Origin: Thermodesulfovibrionales bacterium
Lineage (GTDB): Bacteria; Nitrospirota; Thermodesulfovibrionia; Thermodesulfovibrionales; SM23-35
Length of the DNA: 52,111 bases
Direction of reading: 5' to 3'
NCBI GenBank assembly: GCA_022865525.1
Contig: JALHSV010000264.1
Span: 1-52,111, forward strand
In this document: positions 11,933 through 52,111 of the stretch, piece by piece
How positions within the stretch are numbered: the stretch's first letter is position 1
How the letters are laid out: each line of letters begins with the position of its first letter
Translations under genes and position numbers: made by a program
Notes under the pieces: generated by a model
Told to the model about the DNA's origin: nothing
Seen by the model: only the letters and a program-made list of their open reading frames with translations
The model's database searches: none

Positions 11933-11950
11933 AAGGACAGAGTAAAGATG
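11906..11950 (+). repeat. 45-bp junction repeat, copy 1
   Basis: gacgtaatatgtgtaataaagaattgaaaggacagagtaaagatg is identical to 12131-12175 at 43 of 45 positions. Confidence 0.9.
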
Positions 11951-12157: not shown

Positions 12158-12175
12158 AAGGACAGAGTAAAGATG
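12131..12175 (+). repeat. 45-bp junction repeat, copy 2
   Basis: See 11906-11950. Confidence 0.9.
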
Positions 12176-29607: not shown

Positions 29608-30645
29608 ATGAGTACATCTGATGTCACTAAAGCGACGAGGGAACTGTTCGACAGGACTCTCGTTGACCAGGTTCACATGCGAACGCCTGTCGTTGAAGCA
29701 CTTATGCGCAACGGTCAGGTCACCAAGAGTTTCAAAGGTGGTAAATATATTGAAAAACTAATTGATACGGACACAATCGAATCACTGGTACAGGAGTACA
29801 CCAACAACAGCGCCTTAACGGACGCCAAGAAGACTACTCTTGAAAAACCGAGGTTTACGTGGAAGTATGCACAACTGCCCCTTAGATACGACCTCGACGA
29901 ATACATTCAGAACGCCGACGCCGGTACCGAAGAGCAGTTACTCGACCTTCCTTCACATCTTGTGAGTAAGGCCCATAAAGACCTGAGATTATGGCAATGC
30001 GCCAAAATCTTTAATTCAGGCTCGACTACGGGCGTAGCTGACGGGGCGACGGCATTTCAGTCGCTGGTATCGGCATTAGACGTTGACGTTACCTACGGCA
30101 CGATTACAAGAACTGCCTCAAGTAACACAGCGGACTACTGGCAGGGTGCAGACCCCGCCGGTTTGTGGAGTGGAATTACAGCCGGTACACAGGCTACAGC
30201 GACCAACTTCACTGTCTCTAACGTGAGAAAGTGGGTCCACGAGTCCGACATCGCCCATCACATGGACGGTGAGGACGACCTGATGGTGTTGTGTTGCCCG
30301 ACGCTGTTCAATAAGATGCGTGCCGAGATGGAGTCTAAGCTCATCTATAAGGCGGGACTCAAGCAGTCTCAGGGCATTAACTCGATGCTGCTTGATGGTG
30401 GAATCGAGTTCGTGAGCGTTCCTTATCTCCAGACGACTTCGACAATGAAGACATGGGTCTTCATTATCAATCTCAGGCACTGGGAATGGCGTATGTCGAG
30501 TAAGAGAAACTTCTCTCAGACCGGCTTTGTGTGGCAGGGCGACCGTTCCAACGGTTATGATATGTGGCTTGCCAGAATAATGATGTGCGGGAACTTCTTC
30601 TGCTGGAAACCAAATAGTTCGATGTGGCTAAGTAACGTATCTTAA
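29608..30645 (+). CDS. major capsid protein
   Basis: 345 aa ORF after the scaffold gene. SD TAGGAGTAAG. The portal-scaffold-capsid order is typical. Confidence 0.7.
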   Translation: MSTSDVTKATRELFDRTLVDQVHMRTPVVEALMRNGQVTKSFKGGKYIEKLIDTDTIESLVQEYTNNSALTDAKKTTLEKPRFTWKYAQLPLRYDLDEYIQNADAGTEEQLLDLPSHLVSKAHKDLRLWQCAKIFNSGSTTGVADGATAFQSLVSALDVDVTYGTITRTASSNTADYWQGADPAGLWSGITAGTQATATNFTVSNVRKWVHESDIAHHMDGEDDLMVLCCPTLFNKMRAEMESKLIYKAGLKQSQGINSMLLDGGIEFVSVPYLQTTSTMKTWVFIINLRHWEWRMSSKRNFSQTGFVWQGDRSNGYDMWLARIMMCGNFFCWKPNSSMWLSNVS

Positions 30646-30683
30646 AAGACTTATGAAAAACAATTTAATTAAGGAGTAAAAAA

Positions 30684-31400
30684 ATGACTTTAATAAACTT
30701 GGGATATATAACCCTTAACGATGGTTTTCCGGGTGGTATCAATCCTAATCGTAGTGTTCCTACTGATGGTTGGGACAATACCGTTGATAATATCACTACA
30801 ACTTCTGCGGACCAGGAACCTCCAGTACCTGTTGGTACGAAGGTAATGGCGTACTCGGATAACCCGCACGCACCCGGATACTACACGATGCAGTATCTGA
30901 TGTTCCACGACTATTCATCTGCCCCGATTAACGCGACAGACTATAGCATAAATGGTGCATGGTGCGCACATTGTGATATTTCCGATGCGGAAAAGTACAC
31001 TACTGATTTCTCAGCAGTTCCCTGGTATGTTGTATCGAAGTGTTATACGGCGGTATCTTCGGATATTACACAGGGTTTTCCTGTTGCGTTGCCTTGCGCT
31101 ACTCTCGATGGCGATGGTTCTGTTGTTTTTGTAACCGGTTACGGCGATACCTACGGTTGGTTCTGGGTTGGTGGTGTTTGTCCATTAGATGATGTGAGTC
31201 ATTTCAGAGGCCAGTCAGATACCTCTCAGGGCTTTGATTTCTCTGTAGATACTTTGATGAGAAACGGCCCGATAATGGCGTGTATGTCAGCGGCATGGAT
31301 GAAGATTGCAAGTGCGGATATGTCCGATGTTGCTGATGCGACAGGAAATATCGGCCTGCCGCCCTATGCTTTCGGTCATGCTTGCACAAGTGCAGCTTAA
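30684..31400 (+). CDS. hypothetical head-associated protein (238 aa)
   Basis: Strong SD AAGGAG. Follows the capsid gene. Confidence 0.6.
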   Translation: MTLINLGYITLNDGFPGGINPNRSVPTDGWDNTVDNITTTSADQEPPVPVGTKVMAYSDNPHAPGYYTMQYLMFHDYSSAPINATDYSINGAWCAHCDISDAEKYTTDFSAVPWYVVSKCYTAVSSDITQGFPVALPCATLDGDGSVVFVTGYGDTYGWFWVGGVCPLDDVSHFRGQSDTSQGFDFSVDTLMRNGPIMACMSAAWMKIASADMSDVADATGNIGLPPYAFGHACTSAA

Positions 31401-31415
31401 TGAAAGGAGCTTAAT

Positions 31416-31706
31416 ATGGCTGGAATAGACTTAGCATCACAGTATGCAGGAACTATACCCGGTGCAGGCCGGACAGAACTTGGCTATTTCGATGTAAGCT
31501 CCGGCTCGTGGACTGTCGAAGTACCAACAAGATTGGTCACCTGTTTTTTCGGACTCGGCATAGCCGATTACGATACCGGTGGCGATAACAATACGCTTAT
31601 ATTTCCGACCGACTGCATAATAACGTCGGGTGCGGTTACGTTTAGGCGTACAGGCCCGTATAACCTCGAAGACGAGCGTTTTCGATATATGTTATGCGGA
31701 TTTTAA
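31416..31706 (+). CDS. hypothetical head-associated protein (96 aa)
   Basis: SD AAAGGAG. Confidence 0.6.
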   Translation: MAGIDLASQYAGTIPGAGRTELGYFDVSSGSWTVEVPTRLVTCFFGLGIADYDTGGDNNTLIFPTDCIITSGAVTFRRTGPYNLEDERFRYMLCGF

Positions 31707-31717
31707 TTTAGTCCTTC

Positions 31718-31754
31718 TCAGGTTGGGTGTGGGGTCACGTGGCCTCACACCTGA
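31718..31754 (+). terminator. imperfect stem-loop after the capsid block
   Basis: TCA..GGTGTG..GG / CC..CACACC..TGA hairpin. There is no T-run, so it may be an attenuator or processing site rather than a terminator. Confidence 0.3.
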
Positions 31755-31768
31755 CTTTAAGGTGAATT

Positions 31769-32464
31769 ATGACAGGCGCAGAACTAACAGATGAAGTTAG
31801 AGAGATAGTAGGCCGGCCGGGTGCTGCGGCTTCGGGTGTTATTACCGATGCCCGCGTGACCAGATGGCTTAATGATGCACAGGCGGCAATAGTAGAGGGG
31901 TGCGTAGGTCTTCATGGAATGTCCTTTAAGAATACGGACTCTCTGGATACTACCGCCGTACTCAAGTATGCGTTAGCCGATATAACCGTAGGCGATGTTT
32001 CCGTCTCGGACGCCGTATGCAGGATATACGACGTATGGTACCTGAACGGTCTTGAGACGAAAAAGCTGAACTTCCTGACTACCGACGAATTTGACGAGTT
32101 GTATCCCGACCCTACCCACAGTGATATTCCATTAACTATACCGTCTGTGTGGACGAGAAGGGGCGCTTATATAGAGATAATGCCGATAGGCGTTACCGCT
32201 TACTATGATAAGGACTTGCGATTCGACGGAGACAGGTACGCGCGTGATTTGACGACTAACGACGCTACCGTTTCGGATATTACCGGGGCCGACGAAGGTC
32301 TGATTGCTTACGGTGCATGGAAGGCGTGGGGTGCTATCGGAGGCCCGAAAGCTACCCTGGAAGAGTTGAAATGGAAGAGAAACTGGGAAGACTGGTTAGA
32401 TGACTTCCGTTCACAGAATGACGACTTGGATGAATGGGATGGTAAAATGTTCGGAGATATTTAG
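31769..32464 (+). CDS. head-tail adaptor / tail-tubular-A-like protein
   Basis: 231 aa. N-terminal LTDEVREIVGR......ITDARVTRWLNDAQAAI resembles head-tail connector families. Position is equivalent to T7 gp11. Confidence 0.4.
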   Translation: MTGAELTDEVREIVGRPGAAASGVITDARVTRWLNDAQAAIVEGCVGLHGMSFKNTDSLDTTAVLKYALADITVGDVSVSDAVCRIYDVWYLNGLETKKLNFLTTDEFDELYPDPTHSDIPLTIPSVWTRRGAYIEIMPIGVTAYYDKDLRFDGDRYARDLTTNDATVSDITGADEGLIAYGAWKAWGAIGGPKATLEELKWKRNWEDWLDDFRSQNDDLDEWDGKMFGDI

Positions 32465-32478
32465 AGAAGGGAAAAACA

Positions 32479-32865
32479 ATGGTCAGTGAGAAGGTCGGGT
32501 CTTTTATAAGTAAAGATGGGTGTAAATATAGTATAGATTGTCCCTTGTTGCCTCGTAATGGCGTTCCATACTGTTGCCGTCATTGTCATAAAAGCCGTAA
32601 GGATTACGTGACAGACTCCAACAGGCATTTATGGACTGATAAGGGCGGCTTTCATTCTCCGGATAACGGGTGCAGACTTCCTCGCGAAGATATGCCCAAA
32701 GAGTGTCTGGACTATGACTGCCGCAATTATTGGTTCTTTCTGGTATCGGCGTATTTTGATGGCAAGTGGATGTCTAATAGCGGCGCTCCGTTAAAAAGTG
32801 AAAATGAAGTTATAACAGTAGTAAAGTCTGTTAATGCAACTTTGTGGATGAATAGAAATGGTTAA
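32479..32865 (+). CDS. Cys/His-rich protein (128 aa), first ORF of the sugar island
   Basis: CKYSIDCP...CCRHCH...C...C..DC. No family recognised. Confidence 0.55.
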   Translation: MVSEKVGSFISKDGCKYSIDCPLLPRNGVPYCCRHCHKSRKDYVTDSNRHLWTDKGGFHSPDNGCRLPREDMPKECLDYDCRNYWFFLVSAYFDGKWMSNSGAPLKSENEVITVVKSVNATLWMNRNG

Positions 32866-33688
32866 AATTATAGCCGAAATGAGTGCTTCTCATCAGCAGT
32901 CTTTTCAAAAGGCTCTTGCGATAGTATGGGCGGCGGCCGAAGCAGGTGCCGACGCCCTTAAGGTACAAATGTTCACACCCGACGACATGACAGTCAATAG
33001 CAACGATAAAATGTATAGGATTGGAACTGGTCAGTGGTCGGGTATGACTTTGTACGAACTCTATCAGAAGGCTTGTATGCCCTACGATTGGATTCCCGCT
33101 ATAAAAGACCATGCGGAATCACGTGGAATGGAATTTATCGCTACGGTCTATCATCCGAGGACCGTGCCGATAGCCGTGGAAATGGGTATAAAGTCTCTGA
33201 AGATTTCGTCTTTTGAAATAAATTTTGAAAAATTATTAATTAGTGTTGACAAAACAAATTTACCCGTTATAGTTTCGACAGGTTCGGCTACTGAAAAGGA
33301 AATAAGTTATGTAGTTAATCTTTTGAGAAGGAACTTAACTTTGCTGAAATGCACATCACAATATCCAGCCCCTGCGGAATCGCTTAATATCAGAACTATT
33401 CCCGACATGTGCGAACGGTGGGGAGTTCCCGTAGGTCTTTCAGACCATTCTTTAGGCATGATAGGTGCTATAAGTGCGGTATCTTCAGGTGCATCTGCAA
33501 TCGAGAAGCACATTACGATTGACGGCAAAGGTCTGGACAAAGACTTTGCTATCCTTCCCGACAGGTTCAATATGATGGTACAGCTTGTTCGCGAGACCGA
33601 AAAGGCTTTAGGTGAAGTGGAGTATGGTGGTAAGAAGACTTATCATCGTGAACTCGTAGGTGGACAAATGCAGAGGACGGTAAAATGA
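32858..33688 (+). CDS. neuB: nonulosonic acid synthase (NeuB/PseI/LegI family), short form
   Basis: IIAEMSASHQQSFQKAL..AAEAGADALKVQMF, LKISS, VIVSTG, LLKCTSQYPAP and GLSDHS match the NeuB TIM-barrel domain. 276 aa, with no room for the C-terminal SAF domain. Confidence 0.85.
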   Translation: MVKIIAEMSASHQQSFQKALAIVWAAAEAGADALKVQMFTPDDMTVNSNDKMYRIGTGQWSGMTLYELYQKACMPYDWIPAIKDHAESRGMEFIATVYHPRTVPIAVEMGIKSLKISSFEINFEKLLISVDKTNLPVIVSTGSATEKEISYVVNLLRRNLTLLKCTSQYPAPAESLNIRTIPDMCERWGVPVGLSDHSLGMIGAISAVSSGASAIEKHITIDGKGLDKDFAILPDRFNMMVQLVRETEKALGEVEYGGKKTYHRELVGGQMQRTVK

Positions 33689-34359: not shown

Positions 34360-34456
34360 TGGATGGATAATGTTAGGAATAGGTTTTGTTTGTGGATTAT
34401 CTACTCGATATGTATGTCGTTTTTATTGGATGCTATTTACCCATAATGTTGAATAA
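34355..34456 (+). CDS. possible 33-aa membrane peptide
   Basis: MNGWIMLGIGFVCGLSTRYVCRFYWMLFTHNVE. Short, so uncertain. Confidence 0.3.
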   Translation: MNGWIMLGIGFVCGLSTRYVCRFYWMLFTHNVE

Positions 34457-35288
34457 CAAGACAATACTTATCTCAGGCGGAAGTGGTTCTTTGGGCCACG
34501 CTCTTGTCGAGAGGATATGCACAGAGTATTCGCCTAAAAAACTATTCATCTTCTCTCGTGACGAATACAAGCAATCTCTTATGCAGAAGCAATACGACTA
34601 CGACTGCCTGAGATATTTTATAGGTGACGTAAGGGACGTAAGAAGGCTCAAGCAGGTATGCCGGGGCGTTGACATAGTAATACACGCCGCAGCACTTAAA
34701 AGGGTAGATACGCTCGAATACAATCCCACAGAGGCCATCAGGACCAACGTGGACGGCACTATGAATGTAATTGAGACTTGTATCGAATGTGACGTAAAGA
34801 GTGCTGTTTTCATATCGACGGACAAGGCTTACGCCCCCGTGAATCTCTATGGCGCTACTAAGTTGGCAGCCGAGAAGATATGGCTGGCGGCAAACTCGTT
34901 CAATAAGACCGTCTTTACATTGGTAAGGTACGGTAACGTCATAAACTCAAGAGGTTCGGTAATCGAGTTATTCCTGAAGTTGAAAGAAAAGGGTATAAAG
35001 GAATTTCCGATAACCGATAAGAATATGAGTCGCTTCTGGATAACTCTGGACGAAGCGGTTGACCTTATAATAGTAGCTCTGGAACATCGAGGCGATTCGG
35101 ATATATATATCCCGAAAGTGCCTTCGATGTTGATAACCGAAGTGGCAAGGGCGATAGACCCCGACTGTACGTTTAATGAAATAGGAATACGTCCGGGCGA
35201 GAAGTTACACGAAACCTTATGTGACGGTTACTCCTCGAATACCAACGAGGACTGGATGACGCCGGAAGAGTTACTGGAGAAATTATGA
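34446..35288 (+). CDS. pseB: UDP-GlcNAc 4,6-dehydratase (PseB/FlaA1/CapD family)
   Basis: KTILISGGSGSLGHAL, FIGDVRD, IHAAALKRV..EYNPTEAIRTNVDGTMNV and ISTDKAYAPVNLYGATKLAAEK. ATG 34446 chosen (the track starts at TTG 34386). Confidence 0.85.
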   Translation: MLNNKTILISGGSGSLGHALVERICTEYSPKKLFIFSRDEYKQSLMQKQYDYDCLRYFIGDVRDVRRLKQVCRGVDIVIHAAALKRVDTLEYNPTEAIRTNVDGTMNVIETCIECDVKSAVFISTDKAYAPVNLYGATKLAAEKIWLAANSFNKTVFTLVRYGNVINSRGSVIELFLKLKEKGIKEFPITDKNMSRFWITLDEAVDLIIVALEHRGDSDIYIPKVPSMLITEVARAIDPDCTFNEIGIRPGEKLHETLCDGYSSNTNEDWMTPEELLEKL

Positions 35289-35494: not shown

Positions 35495-35634
35495 AACGCG
35501 TACTTGCTCTTATTATTACAAGCCCGGTATGGCTTACGGCGGTAGTTCTGATGAGTTTTGTTTGTATTCCCGTGTGGATTGCTCTTGGTATTGTCCGATT
35601 AATAATGTATGGTTTCAATGGAGAGTGGGAATAA
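35491..35634 (+). CDS. small membrane protein (47 aa; not in the ORF track)
   Basis: MKRVLALIITSPVWLTAVVLMSFVCIPVWIALGIVRLIMYGFNGEWE. Confidence 0.45.
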   Translation: MKRVLALIITSPVWLTAVVLMSFVCIPVWIALGIVRLIMYGFNGEWE

Positions 35635-35639
35635 TTTCG

Positions 35640-36266
35640 ATGATATTTGACAGACTCGCAATAGGCACGGCTAACTGGGGCAGGGAATACAACGGGGCGA
35701 AAGTCTCCGAAGATGACCAGAAGCGTATTCTCGACTACTGTCAATGCTCAGGTATAGACATGATAGATACGGCCACGGCTTATGGTTGGGACTGGACTAA
35801 AGTTAGTTCTTACTTCAATATTATAGTGAAGGTTAAGAGTAATGATAAAGTTGATAATGTAATAAAGATGGCACATAGCCTTGAAGATTACAAAGCCATA
35901 GACCCGGTTTGTAATGGTTGTTCTATATATTCGCCTGAAGAACGCATGTATGTTTACGGTGGTTCTGTGATACAAATACCTTATTCTATATATGACAGAC
36001 GATTTGAACCTTATTTGGAATCAATGCGATATGAATGTAATAATACTATCCACGTCCGTTCTATCTTCTTACGGGGCAAAATCTTAAAGGAATTTTCACC
36101 TCAGCAGTGTATATCCTTTTGCCTGATGAATCCTAATATAGACCGGGTAATTATAGGTGCGGACTCTTACAAACAGTTCAAAGAGAACCTGCGGCCTTTC
36201 CACGATATGAACGTAGCCGAGAAGCACGATATAAACTTATTAGATTGCCGAAAATGGGAGACATAA
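35640..36266 (+). CDS. aldo/keto reductase-like protein (short)
   Basis: LAIGTANWGREY......ILDYCQCSGIDMIDTATAYG is the AKR N-terminal signature. 208 aa from ATG 35640. Confidence 0.55.
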   Translation: MIFDRLAIGTANWGREYNGAKVSEDDQKRILDYCQCSGIDMIDTATAYGWDWTKVSSYFNIIVKVKSNDKVDNVIKMAHSLEDYKAIDPVCNGCSIYSPEERMYVYGGSVIQIPYSIYDRRFEPYLESMRYECNNTIHVRSIFLRGKILKEFSPQQCISFCLMNPNIDRVIIGADSYKQFKENLRPFHDMNVAEKHDINLLDCRKWET

Positions 36267-37531
36267 TGAATTGGCTTAAAACATGCGAGTTAATACCTGA
36301 CGGCGTTCAGACGTTATCCAAGATGCCGGAGAAACACATCAACGGCGTATATCCTAAGTACATCACACACGGAAAGGGTGCTTATGTTTACGGTGACGAT
36401 GGCAAACGGTACATAGATTACCCCTGTGGGCTGGGTGCCATCCTTTTAGGTTACGCAAACGACAGGGTTAATCAGGCCGTTAAGGAACAACTTAACAGGG
36501 GTTCTATTTTTTCACTGCCTAACTATCTGGAAACAGAACTCGCCGAGCGGATAGTTGACCTTATCCCAAGCGCTGAGAGAGTGCGCTTCTTAAAAACTGG
36601 CTCTGAGGCAACGTCCGCTGCGGTAAAGATTGCCCGTGCCTATACCGGTAAGGAAGGAATAATCTGTATAGGTTATCACGGCTGGCACGACTGGTACTGT
36701 TCTACGACCTCTAAGAAGGCCGGAGTACCCGAACAGCCGGTAGTCCAGTGTAAATATAACAGTATCACCGAGATAATCGACGCCTTTGAATTTAATGAGC
36801 AGGAGGACATGACCGGTATTGCGGCGGTAATAATGGAGCCGTACATCCTTGACGAACCCAACTTCGGGTACCTGACGAAGATACGTAAACTTTGTGATAG
36901 GTACAATGCAGTTTTGATATTCGATGAAGTAGTTACGGGATTCAGGACTACCGGTTACTCTGCACAGAAGATGTTCGGGATAATGCCGGATTTGACCTGT
37001 CTGGGTAAGGCGATGGCTAATGGCCTTCCGATTTCAGTAGTATGCGGTAAAAAGGAACTGATGGACGTTCTAAGGGGCGACTGTTTCGTTTCATCTACTT
37101 TCGGCGGCGAACTGCTCTCGATAACAGCGGCACTGGAAGTCTTGAAGATTCTCGATGAAGAGAATATTATCAGCAGGATTTGGGACAACGGCAACCTGTT
37201 CAAGGAAGGGTTCAGGCAGATAGTGGATTCCTGCAAGATGAATGACCATATAGGAATAAGGGGTTATCCGCCGAGGACATTCTTCACGTTCTCATCCGAA
37301 GTACACAAGAGCCTGTTCTGGCAGGAATGCCTTAGTAAGGGCGTCCTGTTCGGTTATGCCCAGTTTATCAGTGCCTCGCACGGCAGGGACGAAATAGACC
37401 AGACCCTGCTTGCGATGAAGCATGGTGTCCAGATGGTATCGAAGTATTTCGATAATCCGCTGGCGGCATTGAGGGGCGAGGTTGCACAGGAAACATTCAG
37501 AACACCGGGATTAGAGAAGGGCAAAAAATGA
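36266..37531 (+). CDS. class-III PLP aminotransferase (glutamate-1-semialdehyde aminomutase-like)
   Basis: GKGAYVYGDDGKRYIDY, FLKTGSEATSAAVKIARAYTG, IMEP, IFDEVVTGFR and LGKAMANGLP (PLP Lys). Start is at 36266 or 36254. Confidence 0.85.
   Translation: MNWLKTCELIPDGVQTLSKMPEKHINGVYPKYITHGKGAYVYGDDGKRYIDYPCGLGAILLGYANDRVNQAVKEQLNRGSIFSLPNYLETELAERIVDLIPSAERVRFLKTGSEATSAAVKIARAYTGKEGIICIGYHGWHDWYCSTTSKKAGVPEQPVVQCKYNSITEIIDAFEFNEQEDMTGIAAVIMEPYILDEPNFGYLTKIRKLCDRYNAVLIFDEVVTGFRTTGYSAQKMFGIMPDLTCLGKAMANGLPISVVCGKKELMDVLRGDCFVSSTFGGELLSITAALEVLKILDEENIISRIWDNGNLFKEGFRQIVDSCKMNDHIGIRGYPPRTFFTFSSEVHKSLFWQECLSKGVLFGYAQFISASHGRDEIDQTLLAMKHGVQMVSKYFDNPLAALRGEVAQETFRTPGLEKGKK
37513..37531 (+). repeat. 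junction repeat agagaagggcaaaaaatga (..EKGKK stop/ATGA), copy 1
   Basis: The same 19-mer occurs at 37683-37701 and 37868-37886. Confidence 0.9.
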
Positions 37532-37701
37532 GCATAAAAGGAGAAAAAAAGAGCGAAGATAAATGTGGTGTTTGCGGTAAAGTTATAGATTGGGATTTAT
37601 GTGACCCAATAATTAGGTGTGGCGAGGGAGATGTAATATTATCTTGTGGCCACATGGGATTGGAAAGCGGAAATGCGGATGAAGAGAAGGGCAAAAAATG
37701 A
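37528..37701 (+). CDS. small zinc-ribbon protein (57 aa; not in the ORF track)
   Basis: MSIKGEKKSEDKCGVCGK...RCGEGDVILSCGH...DEEKGKK. Bracketed by junction repeats. Confidence 0.5.
   Translation: MSIKGEKKSEDKCGVCGKVIDWDLCDPIIRCGEGDVILSCGHMGLESGNADEEKGKK
37683..37701 (+). repeat. junction repeat, copy 2
   Basis: See 37513-37531. Confidence 0.9.
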
Positions 37702-37886
37702 AGCTATTAAAAAAGTCAATCGATAAATATAAATGTAAATGGATTGAGCCTTGGGAAGGCGCACCTTGGGAGTACCAAGAATGTCGTTGTCCCGAGATAT
37801 TTGATGTGTCTTGTGTTCATCAAGCAAACGCAGGCCCAGACATTGGTAAGGATTATACCTGTTTCGAAGAGAAGGGCAAAAAATGA
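37698..37886 (+). CDS. small Cys-rich protein (62 aa) ending EEKGKK
   Basis: Bracketed by junction repeats. Confidence 0.55.
   Translation: MKLLKKSIDKYKCKWIEPWEGAPWEYQECRCPEIFDVSCVHQANAGPDIGKDYTCFEEKGKK
37868..37886 (+). repeat. junction repeat, copy 3
   Basis: See 37513-37531. Confidence 0.9.
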
Positions 37887-38440
37887 AACTTGAAGCACTA
37901 ACTTTAGACCAATGCGAGCAAGTCCGTATCTGGCGTAACGCCGAGATGGAATGCTGGCGAACGCCGTTCATGCTGACTAAACAGATGCAGGATGAGTTCT
38001 ATGAAGGGTGTTGCAACAGGGAATCGCCGCATAGATACTTTGCATTAGTAAGGACGACAGACGACCCAATTCAAGGCGTAGTGCCTGAATCAGGATTTAT
38101 CGGCATGGGTGGCATCACCTATATCCAGTGGGAGAACCGTATAGGCGAGATAACGCTTATCATCAATCCTGTCGAACGCGGGGACGGCTTAGGTGAGAAG
38201 GCGGTTGACCTACTCTTAGACCATGCTTTTAATCACTTGAATTTACAGACGGTATTCGGAGAATGTTATCATTGCAACGATGCTTGGGAGTTTTGGGGAG
38301 ATATAACAGATAAATATGATAGCCCTAATACAATACAAACGCTGTTGCCGAAACGAAAATATTGGAACGGAGACTACTGGGATAGTACGTATTTCTCAAT
38401 AGACAAAGATGACTTCAACAAAATCCATAATAGTAAGTAA
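37883..38440 (+). CDS. GNAT N-acetyltransferase (PseH-like)
   Basis: LTLDQCEQVRIWRNAE at the N-terminus and ...RGDGLGEKAVDLLLDHAF.HLNLQTV in the acetyl-CoA-binding region. Confidence 0.7.
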   Translation: MKLEALTLDQCEQVRIWRNAEMECWRTPFMLTKQMQDEFYEGCCNRESPHRYFALVRTTDDPIQGVVPESGFIGMGGITYIQWENRIGEITLIINPVERGDGLGEKAVDLLLDHAFNHLNLQTVFGECYHCNDAWEFWGDITDKYDSPNTIQTLLPKRKYWNGDYWDSTYFSIDKDDFNKIHNSK

Positions 38441-38957
38441 CCGATTGGTTAATCCCGACGACGAAGCCGATATAACCGGTAAGCTCGACTTTACCGCCGA
38501 AAGGCTGAAGGTCTATGGCAGGCTGGACTATATCTTCGTACCGTTCTGGAGTTGGTACATACCGGCTGATATTTACAAGAAGTGGAACGTAGTAATATTC
38601 CACATGACCGCACTTCCGTTCGGCAGGGGCGGCAGTCCGTTACAGAACTTAATCGTAAGGGGCTTTACGAAGACGAAGATAAGCGCCTTGAAATGCACGA
38701 AAGGCATAGACGCCGGGCCGTTATACTGTCAATCACCGCTCAGTCTCGAAGGTACTGCGGACAACATATATGACCGGGCCGACGATATTATAAGAAAAGC
38801 AATGATACCATTTATCAAGGTGCAGCAGCCCGAACCGAGTCCTCAGAGGGGCAAGGTCGTTTACTTCGATAAGTGGGTATGTACGAAGAAAGACATATTA
38901 AGGTGTATTAACTCAGATTATGAATGGAAAGATACTGACAATATCCGCACATCCTGA
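38409..38957 (+). CDS. formyltransferase-family protein
   Basis: FHMTALPFGRGGSPLQNLIVRG...KCTKGIDAGPL matches the H.SLLP..RG...D.G core of Formyl_trans_N. Confidence 0.6.
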   Translation: MTSTKSIIVSNRLVNPDDEADITGKLDFTAERLKVYGRLDYIFVPFWSWYIPADIYKKWNVVIFHMTALPFGRGGSPLQNLIVRGFTKTKISALKCTKGIDAGPLYCQSPLSLEGTADNIYDRADDIIRKAMIPFIKVQQPEPSPQRGKVVYFDKWVCTKKDILRCINSDYEWKDTDNIRTS

Positions 38958-39492
38958 CGATTGGGAATTGGGCTGTGCAGGAACGATAGAGCGACTGAAG
39001 CGTGAAGGGTGTGAATGTAATCATGCCGTATTAGGCTTAGGGCGTGGCGATGAAACTGATAATAAGTTCGATTCCTTACCTTTGTTGCATTGGGTAGGGC
39101 AGGTTGAACTGCATATAGCAATTCACAGGCCCGACATCATCCTCACTCACTACGCACACGACCTGAACATAGACCATAGGATAACTTATCAGGCCGTTAT
39201 TACGGCGGCACGACCGCTTCCCGACTATTGCGTCAGGGAGATATACTCATTCGAGGTCTTGAGTAGTACCGAGTGGTCGGACATACCGTTTAGGCCGGAT
39301 ATGTTCGTAGCCTTGACTTTGGATGATATGGAAACAAAAGAAAAGATATTGAGAGACGGATATGATAGCGAGATGAGAGACATGCCTCATGCCCGAAGTT
39401 ATCAGGCAGTTGAGTCTCTTGCAATGGTCAGAGGTATGACGGTAGGCGAGAAATACGCCGAAGCGTTTAAGACCGTGAGAAGGATAATATGA
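38920..39492 (+). CDS. PIG-L/LmbE family de-N-acetylase
   Basis: ILTISAHPDDWELGCAGTI and a downstream HxDH (NIDHR). Confidence 0.8.
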   Translation: MNGKILTISAHPDDWELGCAGTIERLKREGCECNHAVLGLGRGDETDNKFDSLPLLHWVGQVELHIAIHRPDIILTHYAHDLNIDHRITYQAVITAARPLPDYCVREIYSFEVLSSTEWSDIPFRPDMFVALTLDDMETKEKILRDGYDSEMRDMPHARSYQAVESLAMVRGMTVGEKYAEAFKTVRRII

Positions 39493-39737
39493 AAGAAGAC
39501 GAAAAACAGTTTCTTCGGATGATTTATGAAAAATGTGTACCTTTTGGTAATAAAAATTATTCTGTTAGAGATGTTATAAATAACCCTAAATGCCCCATAG
39601 TAAGTTACAAGAGAGCTTGGTATGTATTGGGTAAATGGTCAAGTGCTAAAATGGGGTTATATGATTATGGCGTTACTATTGATTTAGGTTGGTTGACTGA
39701 AAAAGGGATAGATTTTGCTAAAAATAATGAAACTTGA
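39489..39737 (+). CDS. hypothetical protein (82 aa)
   Basis: ATGA coupling. Confidence 0.55.
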   Translation: MKEDEKQFLRMIYEKCVPFGNKNYSVRDVINNPKCPIVSYKRAWYVLGKWSSAKMGLYDYGVTIDLGWLTEKGIDFAKNNET

Positions 39738-40506
39738 AGAACTAACAGCCTTATACAGTCCACTGGACATCGAATACGCCCAGGTAATGAGTGGGCCTTA
39801 CGAAGACCTGTCATTCCACGACGGCGATACCAAAGTCGTAGCGGGACTGAAAGACGGCAGGATAAGTGGTTTCTGGCGTCCTGTAGTGGCTGTGGGCGAC
39901 GATAAGGACTTGAAACTACATATTGAGCGTTTGTACGATATATGCCCTAATATCTATTATATGGACTTCCTGATAGACGGCAGGTTATCGGTGATAAGCC
40001 AGTTCTTATTGGAACGGGGCCATAAGGCACGGCCTTATTTCACGCAGATAATAGATTTGACAAAGACCGAAGAAGAATTGCACGCTGATTTGAGGAAGTC
40101 ATATAAGAGTTTAGTGAATAAAGGATTTGGCGGCATTGATACTGCATTAGGTGTTCTTAGAAAATTACACAAGGACACAAGAAGTAATGAAACTTGGCAT
40201 ATACAGTCGAAGATAATCGGAATGCAACAGGCGTTTATCTCAGATGACGAAGGAAAGTCGGCATGTCTTATATATCACAATAGATATACTGCATATTATT
40301 TTAGCGGTGTCTCTGAGGATGGCGTTAATTCTCATCCCTGTTTATGGATGGCCATATTGCAAGCAAAAGCATTAGGCTGTAAGACTTTTGAAATGGGCGA
40401 GCAGGTCTTTGACGGCGACCCCAAGTTAGTAAATATATCCAAATTCAAACGTGGATTTGGAGGAAAAACCGTAACTCGAATAATATTAGAGAAGGATACT
40501 AAATGA
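39727..40506 (+). CDS. FemAB/BioF2-like acyl(aminoacyl)transferase-fold protein
   Basis: IDLTKTEEELHADLRKSYKSLVNKG and the C-terminal ISKFKRGFGG are typical of the FemAB / Acetyltransf_6 family. By eye only. Confidence 0.5.
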   Translation: MKLEELTALYSPLDIEYAQVMSGPYEDLSFHDGDTKVVAGLKDGRISGFWRPVVAVGDDKDLKLHIERLYDICPNIYYMDFLIDGRLSVISQFLLERGHKARPYFTQIIDLTKTEEELHADLRKSYKSLVNKGFGGIDTALGVLRKLHKDTRSNETWHIQSKIIGMQQAFISDDEGKSACLIYHNRYTAYYFSGVSEDGVNSHPCLWMAILQAKALGCKTFEMGEQVFDGDPKLVNISKFKRGFGGKTVTRIILEKDTK

Positions 40507-41852
40507 AGAAAATACTCATCCTGACAGCATCACCCCGCAGAGATTTACTCATTGACGAGCAGATAGCCAAGAAACTCAAAGAGCTGGGTAACGAGACCAA
40601 GATAGCCCCCTGCCTTCGAGAGGGCAGGGATACGGTATTGGAGTACCAGCCTGACGTCGTGGTAGTTCCTCCTGTACGCAATATGTATTCGAGGGACTTC
40701 TGTGAGGACATCAAGCGATTCGGTTGCGGTTTGGTTTCAAGGCATACCGAGCCGTCCTGCGACTGGCCCGACTATAAAGCGATGAACCAGAAGCAGCAGA
40801 GTGAAATATGCGGTCTTATCCAATACTACGTCGATAGTGAACTGGTCTGGTCTGAAGATGAGGCACAAATACTGAATCGCCGAGGTGCAAAGTTCAAAGC
40901 TGTTAGTGTGGGGGCCGTCGGCGTAGATAAGTACCTTAACCCGGAATATAAGAAAAGGTATAAGGACAAGGCTAAATTCAAGAAAAAGTACAAGTTCACT
41001 AATAATAAGACCATTCTTATCCAGTCGCCGTGGGGGTTTGCAGACCATTCACCCGACCTGCGAATAGAGGAGGTTGACGAGTTCGTTAAGGACAACAAAG
41101 GCCGGGACAGGCACTTGGATATGATAGAGGCACTGCACAAGGAATTGCCGGATTATAATATCATCGTAACTACCCATCCGGGCGTAGTTACGAAGCCCTA
41201 CATTCAAAGACTCGGCAAGTTGGGGATACCGCTGGATACGGTATCGACCTCGCTTGAGTTAATGCTGAACTCTGATATTCTTATCCACGCCGGTTCGACA
41301 ATGGCTATCGGGGCGCACTTCCTGAAGATGCCCGCTTTCCAGTTCGGGGACGTTAATCTGAAGGATTCTACGAACTGGTGGCACCAATCGGGCAAGATAA
41401 TGGCAGAGATGTCGTTGAACTGCAAGAACCCAGAGATGCTGGCAAAGCTTATAAAAAAGGCAGAACCGAAGTCCAATATCAATAAGGAAGCCCTGGAGAA
41501 GCTCAGGGAAGGCCGTTACGGAATAATGGACGGTAAGGCCACCGACCGTGCGGCGGAGATAATCAATAAAATCGAAGGCAAGTTCAAGTTCGCCTGGCCG
41601 AGGTCAACTCACGACTATTCTCAGTTAACTATATTACAACACCCATCCAAGGCAATAGCAGATGCTAATTGTGGTATCTGTAAAGAGGCGTTCGGTATAA
41701 TGCGCCCCGAATATAAGGAAATGATTCGAGTAAACGTAGCAAACGTAGTTAAGGAAGCAGAGTTAGTAAATAAGATAATGCTGATATTTGAGCCGGTACG
41801 AGGCACTTACTGCCCGCACTGCGGTTCAAGATTTATGCCGGTAATGCCATGA
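40503..41852 (+). CDS. GT-B-like glycosyltransferase/hydrolase (PseG- or CMP-sugar-transferase-like) with C-terminal zinc ribbon
   Basis: 449 aa. Rossmann-like MKKILILTASP.., IIVTTHPG, and SDILIHAGSTMAIGAHFLKMPAF resembling the GT28/MurG-PseG C-terminal motif. CGICK...CPHCGSRF at the C-terminus. Confidence 0.5.
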   Translation: MKKILILTASPRRDLLIDEQIAKKLKELGNETKIAPCLREGRDTVLEYQPDVVVVPPVRNMYSRDFCEDIKRFGCGLVSRHTEPSCDWPDYKAMNQKQQSEICGLIQYYVDSELVWSEDEAQILNRRGAKFKAVSVGAVGVDKYLNPEYKKRYKDKAKFKKKYKFTNNKTILIQSPWGFADHSPDLRIEEVDEFVKDNKGRDRHLDMIEALHKELPDYNIIVTTHPGVVTKPYIQRLGKLGIPLDTVSTSLELMLNSDILIHAGSTMAIGAHFLKMPAFQFGDVNLKDSTNWWHQSGKIMAEMSLNCKNPEMLAKLIKKAEPKSNINKEALEKLREGRYGIMDGKATDRAAEIINKIEGKFKFAWPRSTHDYSQLTILQHPSKAIADANCGICKEAFGIMRPEYKEMIRVNVANVVKEAELVNKIMLIFEPVRGTYCPHCGSRFMPVMP

Positions 41853-42508
41853 TTTCAGCGATAATTCAAGCAAGGTTAGGTAGTACGAGACTGCCCCGCA
41901 AGGTACTCTTAGAGATACCCAAAGGCAGTGGCGCTACCTGTCTGGACAGAGTTATCGAAGCGGTCAAGAAGAGTATGATAGACCGTATCTCGCTTACCAC
42001 ACCCGATAAGGAACTCTTCGAAATGTTATGGGGAAGGTGGCCCTTAAGGGTGCATCATTACGCCGGTAAAGAGAGGAACGTAATTGCCGAGTTCTTCAGT
42101 ATAGCGATAGAAGGTGATACTATAGTCAGGATAACCGCCGACTGCCCGATGCTGGACTCCGACCAGATAGATAAGTGCATAGACGAGTTTTTAGACGGCG
42201 ATTACGATTTAGTTTACAATACGGACGAGTCTATTACAATGGACGGCGACGGTACCGACGTTGAGGTATTTTCGTACAAGGCCCTGAGAGAGGTTTACTT
42301 GAATGCGACGGGAAACGAGAAAGAGCATGTGACTTTATGGATGAGAAGGAACTTGAAATGTAAATATGTACCTGTGACCTTTAACGGTTGCAGTTTGAAC
42401 AATATCGAAGATTACGAGCGTATTTGCAAGCTCTGGACTGAGAAGGAAGAAAGCGATAAAATATGTCAGTCCACCCAGACGGCTCCGGCACAGGCTGGAC
42501 AAATGTAG
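41849..42508 (+). CDS. acylneuraminate/SpsF-type cytidylyltransferase (CMP-nonulosonate synthetase-like)
   Basis: MISAIIQARLGSTRLPRKVL and RITADCPMLD match CTP_transf_3. Confidence 0.8.
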   Translation: MISAIIQARLGSTRLPRKVLLEIPKGSGATCLDRVIEAVKKSMIDRISLTTPDKELFEMLWGRWPLRVHHYAGKERNVIAEFFSIAIEGDTIVRITADCPMLDSDQIDKCIDEFLDGDYDLVYNTDESITMDGDGTDVEVFSYKALREVYLNATGNEKEHVTLWMRRNLKCKYVPVTFNGCSLNNIEDYERICKLWTEKEESDKICQSTQTAPAQAGQM

Positions 42509-43386
42509 AGGCGGTAGATGTTAATCAGCCGCACGGCAAGGATTACTTATACTGTCAGCACATAGCAAAGGGCGTTCGCAAGCGGATGAACGCCGAACAC
42601 GCGGCATTCGCAGACGCTACGGTAGGAGGGATTCACGTTCCCGGCGGTTGTGCGGTTCTCGGCATCGAGGACGGTACGGCCACTGTCATAGCGGACGGCA
42701 CTCTCGTAGGTCATGGTATCGTATGGGACAATACCGAAGCGTTATGGTGTTGTACCAAAGCCGCTGGCGCTTCGACTACAGGCGACTGGACAATCCTCCA
42801 GATGAATCCCAATACCCAATGGAAGGGCGGCGATGTAACGTGGGCGGGCAATCACCAGTTCGATTCGAGTGTGGACTTCTCAGATGTAGATATAACAGGA
42901 AGTCTATTAGTCGATAGCTCTGCCGACTTCTCTCACGCCTTCTTTGATGGCACAGTAATAGCCACTAATCTTGAAGTTACGGGGGCTGCAATCTTTGATG
43001 GAACCTCCAATTTTTATGATGAAATAGATTTTTCTTCTTTTAATGTTTCTGGATTAGCGGGTATATACGGCAGTTTCAAAACGCAAGATAGTGATGCCGC
43101 AGCTTTAGTTGGTGATGTTACTTATAAAGCATCATCTGATGGATTACTTATAATGTGTACTTCGGGTTCAACAAATAATAAATGGAAATTCAAACAAGCG
43201 TCGGCGGCAAATGTCGTGACAGTTATGGGACAAGGTTATTATGCGGCGGCCGGTACTATAAGAGTAGAAGTAGCAACTTTTCCTATTAAGAAAGATTATT
43301 ATTGGTGCATAAGTTTAGAAGCCGCTACTTTATCTACTTGTTATTGGATTCCTTTTGGTGATGGTTCTTGTGATAAGAATATATAA
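42463..43386 (+). CDS. tail fibre/spike-like structural protein
   Basis: 307 aa, Gly/Thr/Asp-rich with beta-rich composition. Its start lies 46 nt inside the cytidylyltransferase gene and it directly precedes the nozzle-like gene. Confidence 0.4.
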   Translation: MSVHPDGSGTGWTNVEAVDVNQPHGKDYLYCQHIAKGVRKRMNAEHAAFADATVGGIHVPGGCAVLGIEDGTATVIADGTLVGHGIVWDNTEALWCCTKAAGASTTGDWTILQMNPNTQWKGGDVTWAGNHQFDSSVDFSDVDITGSLLVDSSADFSHAFFDGTVIATNLEVTGAAIFDGTSNFYDEIDFSSFNVSGLAGIYGSFKTQDSDAAALVGDVTYKASSDGLLIMCTSGSTNNKWKFKQASAANVVTVMGQGYYAAAGTIRVEVATFPIKKDYYWCISLEAATLSTCYWIPFGDGSCDKNI

Positions 43387-45437
43387 TGGCAGATATACAA
43401 ATAATTAGCCCCGATATGGGATTAAATTCGCTTGTTCCGGCCAATGCCTTGAGTCCTAAAGAGGCGGCTAAGGGCAGCGAGAACTTCACTTACGATTACG
43501 GCCTTCTTTCGACTCCGCAGGGATTTGCTAAATTGGACTTAGCGGCTGCTCTTAACTCCGGCGATACTGTTCTGTCGGTCTTTCAGTGGACGGAATTTGA
43601 TGGTGAGACCCATTTAACGGCTGTTACTACCAAGAAGATATATGAAAACGACAGGGTAAATGCAATGTGGTCTGATAAAACTCAAAGCGGCGTTACAATG
43701 TCTTCTGATATTGTTAATCCCGTATCTTGGGCGGAAGTAGGCCATAACGATACGGCCATTTATATAGACGACGACGCTACTAAGGTGAAGGCATACCATC
43801 ATCTTATAGTCTGTGACGGCGGTCTGTCGAATATCCAGAGATGGGCCGGCAAGTGGGAAGTTGACTTCGCAGACCTCGTAGGGGCGGGCGGTTATCACGA
43901 CGGTACTCAGCACAGGGCGTTACAGGTAAGTCTATCGAAACAGAACCGCCTAATCCTTCTGAGTGCAAAGGAATACTCTACCGCTACTAAGTCATGGATA
44001 GAAAACAACCAAAGGGTTAGATGGCCGACGATAGCCAAAATAGAGACTTGGACGGGTACGGGTTCCGGATTCGCTGACCTGCTCGATACGGGCGGGTTAA
44101 ACGTATGGTCGGCCCCTCTTGGCTCTGACCACATTATATACCAGACCCGCGGAATCTGGTCATTAAATTATGTAGGCGGTACGACCGTGTTCAGTCCCGT
44201 ACCTGTCATTCCCGACCTTGGCCTTTTATCGTATCATCTGCTCACAAGTTATAATAACGTCCACTATTTCTTAGGGACGGACTACAACATTCACGCCTAT
44301 TACGGCGGTTCGGTCAAGGAGACTATCGGCGATAAGATACACAAGTATTTACAGGACGACCTTGACCCTCAGTATAAGTATAAATGCTGGATGCAAATGG
44401 GGCCGAACGGTAAGTTCTTATGGGTATTAATCGTTCCGCAAGGTGCTACGGCCATAACAAAAGCCTATCGTATGAATATACAGACTAAGGCATGGATGGT
44501 CAGGGACTACTCGTCCAAATACACTTCGGGCGGAATAACGGCGGTAACTTTGGCGGGTGCAACTTCGTATATTATAGGCGATACTTATGCTACCGCCCTG
44601 AATACAACCAGTGCTTACGACGTTTCTAATGCCGGTGATATTACTGTAAGATACGGAGACTACCTCATCGATACGAGCAGGACATTAACGAAAGACTATT
44701 CTTCCGGCGTTTGGAGTGCCGGGGGCGTTGACTACTCGTTGGCGGCGGAGGCGTTTACAGCGGACTTTACGAACAATGATATTCTAATGGTAATTGACGG
44801 CTCTAACGGTACTAATACCAGATACGGAACTCATTACTATACGGCCTATGACGTTTCCGCCAACGGGTTCTCGATTCACTGGACGGAAGATAAAACGACT
44901 AACCAATGGCACGGTGTTGCGGACACTTCCATTAGCGTTCCCGCCGATATGTCTATCGGTGGTACGGACTTTCTGCGTGCCTATTCGGCATGCTCATCCG
45001 ACCTTCCCGGCGCTACTTATAACCAGAGCCTTGAGAACGTGCAGGTAAGCGATAGAATGATAATTGCCGACGCCGCAGGCTTTGTTTATAAGGTTGACGC
45101 TACTTATAGCGACGATGACGGCAATGCTATCGTTCAGAGGCACTTAACGCCGGTGATAGACGCTGGTACTCCGGGCCAGAATAAGAGATGGCCGGGTGCG
45201 GAACTGACGGCCAAGGGTACGGCACTGACCGTTTCGTACAGGACGGCCAGCTTCGATACCTCCGATACCGGCTGGACGGATTACACCCAAGCCCTAACAA
45301 GTGAATATATAAACTATGATTTCTTTATAAACGATACGTCTAAGAAGATTCAGTGGATGATAAGTGATTTTTCAGGTGCGGGTATGCAGATAAGTGATTT
45401 CGTACTTAAAGAGCCTTTAATGCTGGAGAGCAGATGA
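43386..45437 (+). CDS. tail tubular protein B / nozzle-like protein
   Basis: 683 aa. The N-terminus ...SPDMGLNSLVPANALSPKEAAKGSENFTYDYGLLSTPQGF resembles the T7 gp12-type start. Also assigned by position. Confidence 0.45.
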   Translation: MADIQIISPDMGLNSLVPANALSPKEAAKGSENFTYDYGLLSTPQGFAKLDLAAALNSGDTVLSVFQWTEFDGETHLTAVTTKKIYENDRVNAMWSDKTQSGVTMSSDIVNPVSWAEVGHNDTAIYIDDDATKVKAYHHLIVCDGGLSNIQRWAGKWEVDFADLVGAGGYHDGTQHRALQVSLSKQNRLILLSAKEYSTATKSWIENNQRVRWPTIAKIETWTGTGSGFADLLDTGGLNVWSAPLGSDHIIYQTRGIWSLNYVGGTTVFSPVPVIPDLGLLSYHLLTSYNNVHYFLGTDYNIHAYYGGSVKETIGDKIHKYLQDDLDPQYKYKCWMQMGPNGKFLWVLIVPQGATAITKAYRMNIQTKAWMVRDYSSKYTSGGITAVTLAGATSYIIGDTYATALNTTSAYDVSNAGDITVRYGDYLIDTSRTLTKDYSSGVWSAGGVDYSLAAEAFTADFTNNDILMVIDGSNGTNTRYGTHYYTAYDVSANGFSIHWTEDKTTNQWHGVADTSISVPADMSIGGTDFLRAYSACSSDLPGATYNQSLENVQVSDRMIIADAAGFVYKVDATYSDDDGNAIVQRHLTPVIDAGTPGQNKRWPGAELTAKGTALTVSYRTASFDTSDTGWTDYTQALTSEYINYDFFINDTSKKIQWMISDFSGAGMQISDFVLKEPLMLESR

Positions 45438-51949: not shown

Positions 51950-52093
51950 ATGAAACACAAAATAATGCAGAGGATATTCTGGTATCTCGCCCGAAAATTG
52001 GAATATGGCGTTGTACTAAAAGTAGGGAAACACTTTCATTACACCGAGATTAAAGAATATATGCCGGATACGATGATTGTATATTTTGGATAG
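51950..52093 (+). CDS. early small protein (47 aa)
   Basis: ATG at 51950 preceded by AAGGGGAAAGAA. The same GGGGAAAGAAATGAA context recurs at 123-137. Confidence 0.55.
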   Translation: MKHKIMQRIFWYLARKLEYGVVLKVGKHFHYTEIKEYMPDTMIVYFG

Positions 52094-52111
52094 GGGAAAG
52101 AAATGAATGAA
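51971..52111. repeat. terminal overlap copy 2 (identical to 1-141)
   Basis: Direct comparison with bases 1-141. Confidence 0.95.

Follow-up and report, generated by a model that had tools for sequence, protein, structure and literature searches.

A phage-encoded GT-B protein with a C-terminal zinc ribbon as a candidate nonulosonic acid transferase

A GT-B gene in a phage sugar island

The window, as the whole stretch of DNA analysed here is called, is the 52,111-nucleotide contig JALHSV010000264.1 from an assembly binned as a Thermodesulfovibrionales bacterium (GCA_022865525.1). Bases 1-141 recur exactly at 51971-52111 as a 141-bp direct repeat, and the contig is therefore a complete phage genome of about 51,970 unique bases that is either circular or terminally redundant. 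Almost all of its genes lie on the + strand, and the late region is ordered as large terminase, portal, major head protein, SU10-type adaptor, a sugar island of about 10 kb, a 307-aa fibre-like protein and a 683-aa virion structural protein. The gene in question is third from last in this tightly packed island within the late structural operon (Table 1). It encodes a 449-aa protein (40503-41852, + strand) predicted to combine a glycosyltransferase B-type (GT-B) fold with a C-terminal zinc ribbon.

The open reading frame (ORF) starts with ATG, ends with TGA and is preceded by a GAAGGA ribosome-binding site 8 nt 5' of the start, and the strand opposite is full of stops. ATGA overlaps join the stop of the upstream FemAB-like gene to its start, and its own stop to the start of the downstream cytidylyltransferase gene, so that the three genes are probably translationally coupled. 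Homologues at E<=1e-3 numbered 177 in a set of 5.8 billion proteins and 596 in a representative set of 1.84 billion (50% clustering), in which 67 were found at E<=1e-30. An alignment of 45 homologues contained 59 invariant columns, among them C390, C393, C437 and C440. Judging from the hundreds of homologues and the invariant columns, this is not a chance ORF, and the 449-aa reading given in a preliminary description of the sequence is confirmed. Scans for promoters and terminators around the island gave a signal no better than shuffled sequence.

Besides the GT-B protein, the island encodes a PseI-type synthase, a PseB-type dehydratase, a class-III aminotransferase, a GNAT protein, a FemAB-like protein, a short aldo-keto reductase (AKR)-like protein, a formyltransferase-like protein, a PIG-L protein and a cytidylyltransferase.

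Family, fold and zinc ribbon

The preliminary description had seen no clear family signature in the 449-aa protein. This was true for Pfam and PHROGs, where no match rose above threshold, and did not hold for NCBIfam, where two families were found. NF046086 (BFO_1060 family glycosyltransferase) was matched with E=7.5e-27 and 94.4 bits, residues 4-357 aligning with positions 2-363 of the 365-position profile, and TIGR04396 (surface carbohydrate biosynthesis protein) with E=4.1e-20 and 72.4 bits (70.3 bits on DNA) over nearly the full length. All 45 aligned homologues matched both families, the best NF046086 match having E=1e-27, and none of them matched the PseG or NeuC models. Alignment with hhalign against nine bacterial TIGR04396 proteins taken from genomes gave a probability of 99.3% and E=2.9e-20 over 360 columns (residues 2-380). 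Weaker similarity was found to the TagB/TagF group. When the family profile was searched against the PDB, TagF was the sole sequence-level match (E=0.0078), with its donor domain aligned and the histidine of the family's HP motif placed on a TagF histidine (chain index 584). Pfam PF04464 (Glyphos_transf) reached 13.5 bits (E=0.035), below its gathering threshold of 22.1 bits, and a weak TarB match appeared among the NCBIfam models; some homologues carry a precomputed PF04464 match, and the distant relative P0313 scored 44 bits. A single-sequence phmmer search of the PDB returned noise only.

Two resemblances suggested in the preliminary description did not survive these searches. For the proposed likeness to capsule transferases (KpsS/KpsC), no capsule-synthesis (Capsule_synth) model appeared among the Pfam and NCBIfam matches at E<=10 or among the top 50 structural matches. 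For the proposed GT28/PseG likeness, no member matched the PseG or NeuC models (TIGR03590, TIGR03568, PF02350), the 449-aa protein itself being without a PseG match at E<=10, and a generic PseG-like C-domain echo of 10-16 bits was seen in three relatives only. The relatives found instead were NF046086 and TIGR04396 and, more weakly, TagB/TagF. So far as sequence comparison can tell, the transferase is a divergent member of the TIGR04396/BFO_1060 superfamily, a GT-B group related to TagB/TagF.

The only characterised members of this superfamily are nonulosonic acid transferases. In Tannerella forsythia, Tanf_01245 and TFUB4_00887 belong to the BFO_1060 family, BFO_1060 being the counterpart in strain 92A2, and their knock-outs lose the terminal pseudaminic acid (Pse) or legionaminic acid (Leg) of the O-glycan while the sugar activated with cytidine monophosphate (CMP) still accumulates (Tomek et al. 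2017, PMC5420450). The two proteins therefore act at the transfer step, after activation. The phage enzyme resembles them in the whole GT-B body, in size, in the lack of a membrane segment, in the HP motif and in a gene position beside a CMP-Pse/Leg biosynthesis locus. It differs in that its gene lies in a structural module, whereas theirs lie in a bacterial O-glycosylation locus, where the acceptor is the N-acetylmannosaminuronic acid (ManNAcA) of a lipid- or protein-linked glycan (PMC5420450). With the bacterial TIGR04396 proteins it shares R13/D14 near the N-terminus, E83 of the RHTE motif, W116, the HP and (H)xGST motifs and the association with a NeuB-type gene; in contrast to them, the phage proteins carry the ribbon, form a separate clade and score under the family cut-off.

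An AlphaFold model based on 45 homologues (predicted local distance difference test, pLDDT, 88.5; predicted template modelling score, pTM, 0.81) contained two Rossmann-type domains and, at the C-terminus, a small module built from hairpins and two helices. Foldseek returned GT-B-type matches only from the PDB, with the 2-epimerases of UDP-N-acetylglucosamine (UDP-GlcNAc; UDP, uridine diphosphate) at the top (E=1.7e-9) and TarL, TagF, TagF-like capsule polymerases and MurG also present; TagF/TarL-type structures were matched at about 1e-8 (3l7m, E=3.8e-8). The template modelling (TM) scores were moderate (0.46-0.51), as would be expected when a two-domain fold is hinged and carries an extra module. 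A fold search of BFVD yielded generic GT-B proteins and nothing more. The model thus bears out the Rossmann-like N-terminus of the preliminary description and, with the PDB matches, its GT-B fold, and it confidently predicts two Rossmann domains in GT-B arrangement followed by a C-terminal Cys4 zinc ribbon. Compared with TagF, TagB and TarL (PF04464; PDB 3l7i, 8va1), the phage protein has a GT-B-like fold, a similar donor domain, the aligned histidine and a C-terminal D-G-x-A...R helix in common. TagF, by contrast, is a membrane-associated polymerase that lacks a zinc ribbon and moves a polyol phosphate rather than a sugar.

The N-domain is the most conserved part of the protein and is rich in invariant arginine and histidine residues (R13, R39, R42, R59, R80 and H81). 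Across the 45 homologues its invariant positions are S10-P11, R13-D14, R39, R42, R59, R80-H81-T82-E83, W116 and E120. The C-domain carries W177-G-F, the HP motif H225-P226 (41175-41180), H262-A-G-S-T266 (41286-41300) and G337-R..G..D343-G344. Within the HP motif H225 is invariant and P226 is conserved in at least 90% of the 45 homologues; in the wider clade the histidine is not invariant. Bacterial sialyltransferases are characterised by D/E-D/E-G and HP motifs, so far as that work is cited in PMC5420450 (Freiberger et al. 2007). At the site compared with D/E-D/E-G, the phage protein has S-E-D119-E120-A after strand 112-115, with E120 invariant, D119 conserved in at least 90% and the glycine of the motif replaced, and this site is not conserved in the bacterial TIGR04396 consensus. 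All of the short segments listed in the preliminary description were recovered, namely IIVTTHPG (219-226), SDILIHAGSTM (257-267), MPAF (276-279), CGIC (390-393) and CPHCG (437-441).

The zinc ribbon named there was likewise confirmed as a predicted Cys4 module, by the invariant cysteines and by the hairpins of the model, in which strands 385-389 and 396-400 are followed by helices 402-429. C390, C393, C437 and C440 are present in 45/45 homologues and in a further 26/26 more distant ones (25-35% identity), and the CxxC...CPxC pair occurs in 37/37 distinct phage copies against 0/9 bacterial relatives. The spacing between the knuckles varies: a helical insert of 33-48 residues is found in most of the window's clade and 14-17 residues elsewhere. 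The compact form (CxxC-x14-17-CPxC) occurs in the other phage groups and in L019, and the window's group spans x16-48 overall. In a tree the phage proteins formed a single clade apart from the bacterial ones (support 100/99). The ribbon is a real feature that is diagnostic of the phage branch, setting it apart from the nine bacterial TIGR04396 relatives examined. Together with its location in the structural module, the ribbon would define the protein as a new, phage-specific branch of the BFO_1060/TIGR04396 kind.

Genomic contexts, proposed reaction and alternatives

The phage homologues fall into three genomic contexts. For the Pse-type island represented by the window, most related loci that have enough flank, at identities as low as 42%, preserve the order FemAB-like protein, transferase, cytidylyltransferase, 307-aa protein and 683-aa protein; a few have an additional ORF or a PIG-L gene in between, and the FemAB-like gene always directly precedes that for the transferase. 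The cytidylyltransferase gene stands directly 3' of the transferase gene in most loci that reach that far, and a 210-aa ORF lies between the two in L001 and L002. The second and third groups were found in an IMG/VR search with more distant zinc-ribbon homologues; many of the related phage records are fragments. The homologue occurs by itself, between the genes for the head protein and the adaptor, in 15 records of sister phages, and these phages have homologues of the terminase, portal, head, adaptor, tail, 307-aa and 683-aa proteins in common with the window. No NeuB or CTP_transf_3 match was found in any of the 15, and no short-chain dehydrogenase/reductase (SDR) epimerase/dehydratase or sugar nucleotidyltransferase (NTP_transferase) in the five of them that were searched, including a complete genome of 64,283 bp. 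That genome is L057, and the other lone-transferase sister phages are among L052-L076; a lone-transferase relative, L073 (IMG/VR), is classed as a provirus.

The third group has the transferase gene after that for the head protein, as the first gene of a different island with PseB-like, NeuB and radical S-adenosylmethionine (radical-SAM) proteins, and a NeuC-type Epimerase_2 gene comes directly after NeuB in four of the ten records searched. In L072, the sole annotated locus of this group, the transferase gene is just 3' of the major head protein gene within the structural module, as in the other groups. The island of this record (L072:9992-19424) comprises two radical-SAM proteins, a small glycosyltransferase-like protein, PseB-like, NeuB and the NeuC-type epimerase, and is closed by a virion structural protein; further records of the group are L047, L049 and L051. 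Among bacteria, a NeuB homologue lies within 10 kb of the TIGR04396 gene in 6/8 loci, and PseG or NeuC lies 2-11 kb away in 3/5 genomes checked. The deep forks among the three context groups are open in the tree, which does not separate a lone enzyme from an island as the ancestral context.

The comparative context, the family matches and the T. forsythia genetics support a transferase and not the missing PseG step. Lone copies have no sugar pathway, and a biosynthetic hydrolase would therefore be purposeless there, while a transferase with a host-made donor fits. Since the lone-enzyme phages have no sugar-synthesis genes, they must use such a donor, for which CMP-linked 3-deoxy-D-manno-oct-2-ulosonic acid (CMP-Kdo) is a speculative candidate. 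In the third-group records that have a NeuC-type gene, the nucleotide-releasing step is already covered. The preliminary description had offered either a CMP-sugar transferase or the PseG step; family and context speak for the former, and the lone copies, the co-occurrence with NeuC and the lack of PseG matches in all 45 homologues speak against the latter.

We consider it somewhat probable that the protein is a GT-B enzyme that transfers the CMP-activated pseudaminic-type sugar of the island, most likely to a virion protein. In the reaction proposed, the island enzymes would build a pseudaminic-acid-type nine-carbon sugar, and the adjoining downstream cytidylyltransferase would activate it as the CMP-sugar, from which we infer the donor. 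The soluble, cytoplasmic transferase would bind the CMP-sugar in its C-domain, by way of the HP and HAGST motifs and the C-terminal G-R..G..D-G helix, and pass the sugar to an acceptor held by the conserved Arg/His-rich N-domain. The zinc ribbon may dock the enzyme on a macromolecular acceptor or partner, and the acceptor would be a virion protein encoded in this late head-tail operon, or a glycan that such a protein carries. The model contains no signal peptide or membrane segment, so that the acceptor must, on this prediction, be cytoplasmic. Working in the cytoplasm, Maf flagellin O-glycosyltransferases attach a CMP-activated nonulosonic acid directly to Ser/Thr of a structural protein. The proposed reaction is like that of Maf and of the KpsS1 pseudaminyltransferase, but these are unrelated families, and neither was matched in our searches.

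Among the possible acceptors a virion protein is tentatively favoured, ahead of a host lipid-linked glycan and, as a remote third, DNA. It is favoured because the structural-module neighbourhood is the only feature besides the zinc ribbon that is common to every group.

Several points weigh against this reading. The scores of 94 bits for NF046086 and 72 bits for TIGR04396 compare with a curated cut-off of 200 bits and a cut-off of 125 bits, respectively, which suggests a distant branch whose specificity could differ. No in-vitro activity has been reported for any member of the superfamily (PMC5420450). The clade is not strictly dependent on a phage-made nonulosonic donor, as the lone-enzyme phages show. 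The location in the structural module is circumstantial support for a virion target and points to candidate acceptors only. Finally, a PseG or NeuC homologue was found in 0/19 Pse-island records (the window contig and 18 related phage records), which leaves one pathway step without an assigned enzyme.

The strongest competing explanation, which we nevertheless regard as unlikely, keeps the same chemistry and assumes a host lipid-linked surface glycan as the acceptor, modified on the cytoplasmic face. The phage would thereby remodel the cell surface, for instance to block superinfection or to prevent progeny from sticking to debris, instead of decorating its own particle. Glycans are indeed what the relatives act on: the T. 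forsythia enzymes add their sugar to ManNAcA of an oligosaccharide and not directly to protein (PMC5420450), and lipid-linked polymers are the substrates of TagF-type relatives. The distant relative P0382 (1645 aa) has its GT-B domain fused to tetratricopeptide (TPR) repeats, FkbM-type and other methyltransferase domains and a polysaccharide deacetylase domain, a combination typical for glycan assembly. However, the gene belongs to the head-tail structural operon, rather than grouping with early or moron genes, in both the Pse-island and the lone-enzyme phages and in L072, the third-group locus that was annotated. Its surroundings contain no flippase, polymerase or membrane protein, and structural genes are the only neighbours common to every group.

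A TagB/TagF-like enzyme that uses another donor with a CMP leaving group, either cytidine diphosphate (CDP)-glycerol or CDP-ribitol as a phosphotransferase or CMP-Kdo, is quite improbable. It would accord with TagF being the one sequence-level match in the PDB, with the weak Glyphos_transf and TarB matches and with P0313, which exceeds the Glyphos_transf threshold. A host-made donor is needed in the lone-enzyme phages in any case, and phage glycosyltransferases that install Kdo are known (10.1101/2023.12.21.572611). Against this, the matches to the nonulosonic acid transferase family exceed those to TagB/TagF in strength by more than 20 orders of magnitude, the gene lies beside a CMP-sugar synthetase gene in a nonulosonic island in most related loci with enough flank, and the bacterial TIGR04396 genes are mostly near NeuB as well.

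Still less probable is a replacement of PseG, in which the GT-B protein would act as a transferase to water and hydrolyse the UDP-linked 6-deoxy-hexosamine for the NeuB-type synthase. The idea gains from the lack of any PseG (TIGR03590) or Epimerase_2 homologue in the 19 island records, from the 449-aa protein being the sole GT-B protein of the island, and from the GT-B-type fold that PseG (GT28-like) and NeuC/LegG share with it, 2-epimerases being the top structural matches. Sequence matches to these enzymes are lacking, however, and homologues occur both alone, without NeuB or cytidylyltransferase and, in the five records searched, without a sugar dehydratase, and alongside NeuC-type enzymes; bacterial relatives lie near PseG or NeuC, and the CMP-sugar is still made when the T. 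forsythia relatives are knocked out. A zinc ribbon and kinase fusions would also be unexpected in a small-molecule hydrolase.

Least probable is DNA glycosylation, with the ribbon binding nucleic acid and the sugar placed on a hydroxymethylated base as by T4 beta-glucosyltransferase and other phage DNA glycosyltransferases: there are phage GT-B enzymes that glycosylate DNA, the ulosonic acid Kdo being among the sugars used (10.1101/2023.12.21.572611), zinc ribbons are often nucleic-acid binders and a P-loop kinase is fused to some relatives, but no thymidylate-synthase-family or TET/JBP enzyme was found in the window contig and two complete relatives (the TET search having no positive control), among DNA-modification genes only an N6/N4 methylase was seen, the transferase gene belongs to the structural and not the replication module, and T4 beta-glucosyltransferase was outside the top 50 structural matches. 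The phage DNA glycosyltransferases resemble the present enzyme in being phage-encoded, in being expressed along with other phage genes and in modifying a phage macromolecule, as proposed here, and their use of Kdo is a precedent for CMP-ulosonic donors (10.1101/2023.12.21.572611).

Returning to the favoured transfer to a virion protein, we put forward as a plausible but tentative idea that the clade combining GT-B fold and zinc ribbon consists of phage virion-protein glycosyltransferases, which would coat capsids or tail fibres with a self-made pseudaminic-type sugar, the ribbon recognising the structural protein during assembly. Mycobacteriophage capsid and tail glycosyltransferases are a precedent for virion glycosylation. 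Those virion systems and the DNA systems use other glycosyltransferase families, and none of them is reported to have a nonulosonic pathway or a zinc ribbon. A literature search returned no description of a phage-encoded pseudaminic-acid pathway or transferase. If virion decoration is true, this would be the first bacteriophage particle bearing a sialic-acid-like sugar, and a sugar familiar above all from bacterial flagella, capsules and S-layers would appear on phages, with consequences for how the particles adsorb, how stable they are and how hosts or grazers recognise them. Few transferases are known for bacterial pseudaminic and legionaminic acids, and the BFO_1060/TIGR04396 type is without a structure or in-vitro assay. 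The work defines a large phage-only branch with a diagnostic ribbon and a set place in the head-tail module, with or without its own sugar island. The three contexts (lone enzyme, Pse-type island and NeuC-containing island) offer a natural experiment for finding the acceptor, and the enzyme, being soluble and compact, would lend itself to structural studies and to glyco-engineering with nonulosonic acids.

Sugar island and other features of the phage genome

Table 1. Features of the window, with positions counted from its first base
Feature	Position	Strand	Basis or remark
Large terminase	starts 20116		
Laminin_G_3 (concanavalin-like lectin) domain protein	22734-23543		between terminase and portal
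Portal	starts 26613		
Upstream structural flank (major head protein, two small proteins, adaptor)	29608..32464	+	candidate acceptors
Major head protein	29608-30645	+	phrog_9953
SU10-type adaptor	31769-32464	+	PF24175
128-aa cysteine-rich protein	32479..32865	+	8 invariant Cys (alignment)
NeuB/PseI-type nonulosonic acid synthase	32858..33688	+	Pfam NeuB E=3.8e-65; TIGR03586 PseI 267 bits vs NeuB 189 bits
PseB-type UDP-GlcNAc 4,6-dehydratase	34386..35288	+	Polysacc_synt_2 E=7.9e-87; TIGR03589 PseB 380 bits
Tailoring enzymes (short AKR-like, class-III aminotransferase, GNAT, formyltransferase-like, PIG-L deacetylase)	35529..39492	+	
FemAB-like acyl/aminoacyl transferase	39715..40506	+	TIGR04421 E=3.8e-10
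GT-B glycosyltransferase with C-terminal zinc ribbon, 449 aa (candidate)	40503..41852	+	ORF, NCBIfam, AlphaFold (AF2) model, PDB fold matches
N-terminal Rossmann-type domain, about residues 1-165	40503..40997	+	secondary structure of model, invariant columns
C-terminal Rossmann-type (nucleotide-donor) domain, about residues 166-360	40998..41582	+	model, alignment
Cys4 zinc ribbon, residues 385-449	41655..41849	+	C390-x2-C393 ... C437-P-x-C440, two-helix insert between knuckles
CMP-nonulosonic acid synthetase (cytidylyltransferase)	41849..42508	+	Pfam CTP_transf_3 E=1.6e-15; makes presumed donor
Downstream structural flank (307-aa fibre-like and 683-aa virion structural protein)	42463..45437	+	phrog_3287, conserved synteny; candidate acceptors
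307-aa fibre-like protein	starts 42463	+	
683-aa virion structural protein	starts 43386	+	

A DegT-type PseC was absent from the window island and from the 18 related phage records, a class-III aminotransferase of the glutamate-1-semialdehyde aminomutase-like kind being present instead. The host may supply the missing UDP-release and PseC-type steps. Other island proteins were considered as the UDP-sugar hydrolase and rejected: the AKR-like protein belongs to a short, genuinely AKR-related oxidoreductase family, and the PIG-L and formyltransferase-like proteins were detected in a minority of relatives. Homologues of the latter two (38409-39492 in the window) occur together in only four related loci (L001, L002, L003 and L019, among L001-L021), and the decorations of the sugar therefore probably differ between lineages. 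In L001 and L002 the PIG-L gene is 3' of the cytidylyltransferase gene.

At the head of the island lies the gene for the 128-aa protein, with the pattern C-x5-CP...CC-x2-C...GC-x-L-x-R..P-x-EC..Y-D/N-C. It gave no family match, and an AlphaFold-type model was poor (pLDDT 67.5) and without a fold match; it may resemble the YkgJ/CxxCxxCC family. In three related loci a domain of this type and an AAA_33 P-loop kinase are fused to the N-terminus of the transferase (L012:8981-11314, L015:407-2617 and L009:7317-9599).

A megablast search with the island gave no match among 50,697 phage records. A scan of GTDB genomes yielded two phage contigs in Planctomycetota bins (L022 and L023; 34 kb and 67 kb; P0041 and P0061), one of them in Pirellulales, and two further candidates (L024 and L025) were discarded as spurious N-terminal matches of 33-38 residues inside unrelated ORFs of about 180 aa. 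The same Pirellulales bin holds a PseG-like gene on another contig (128 bits). These contigs are a weak hint at Planctomycetota hosts for the related phages, bin membership being weak evidence of a host. The window's own assembly consists of 683 contigs, exceeds the 1.8-2.1 Mb genomes of its genus by about 1 Mb and includes several separate phage contigs in the same bin. Because the bin is oversized and holds these phage contigs, the assignment of the phage to the binned organism is doubtful.

Elsewhere in the genome, the Laminin_G_3 protein may be a carbohydrate-binding component of the virion; its gene adjoins one for a 610-aa protein without matches. The early region contains two pairs of direct repeats of 45-49 nt (11906-11950 / 12131-12175 and 5668-5716 / 6029-6077, with 96% and 84% identity), the first of which ends in a ribosome-binding site and ATG, suggesting duplicated gene starts.

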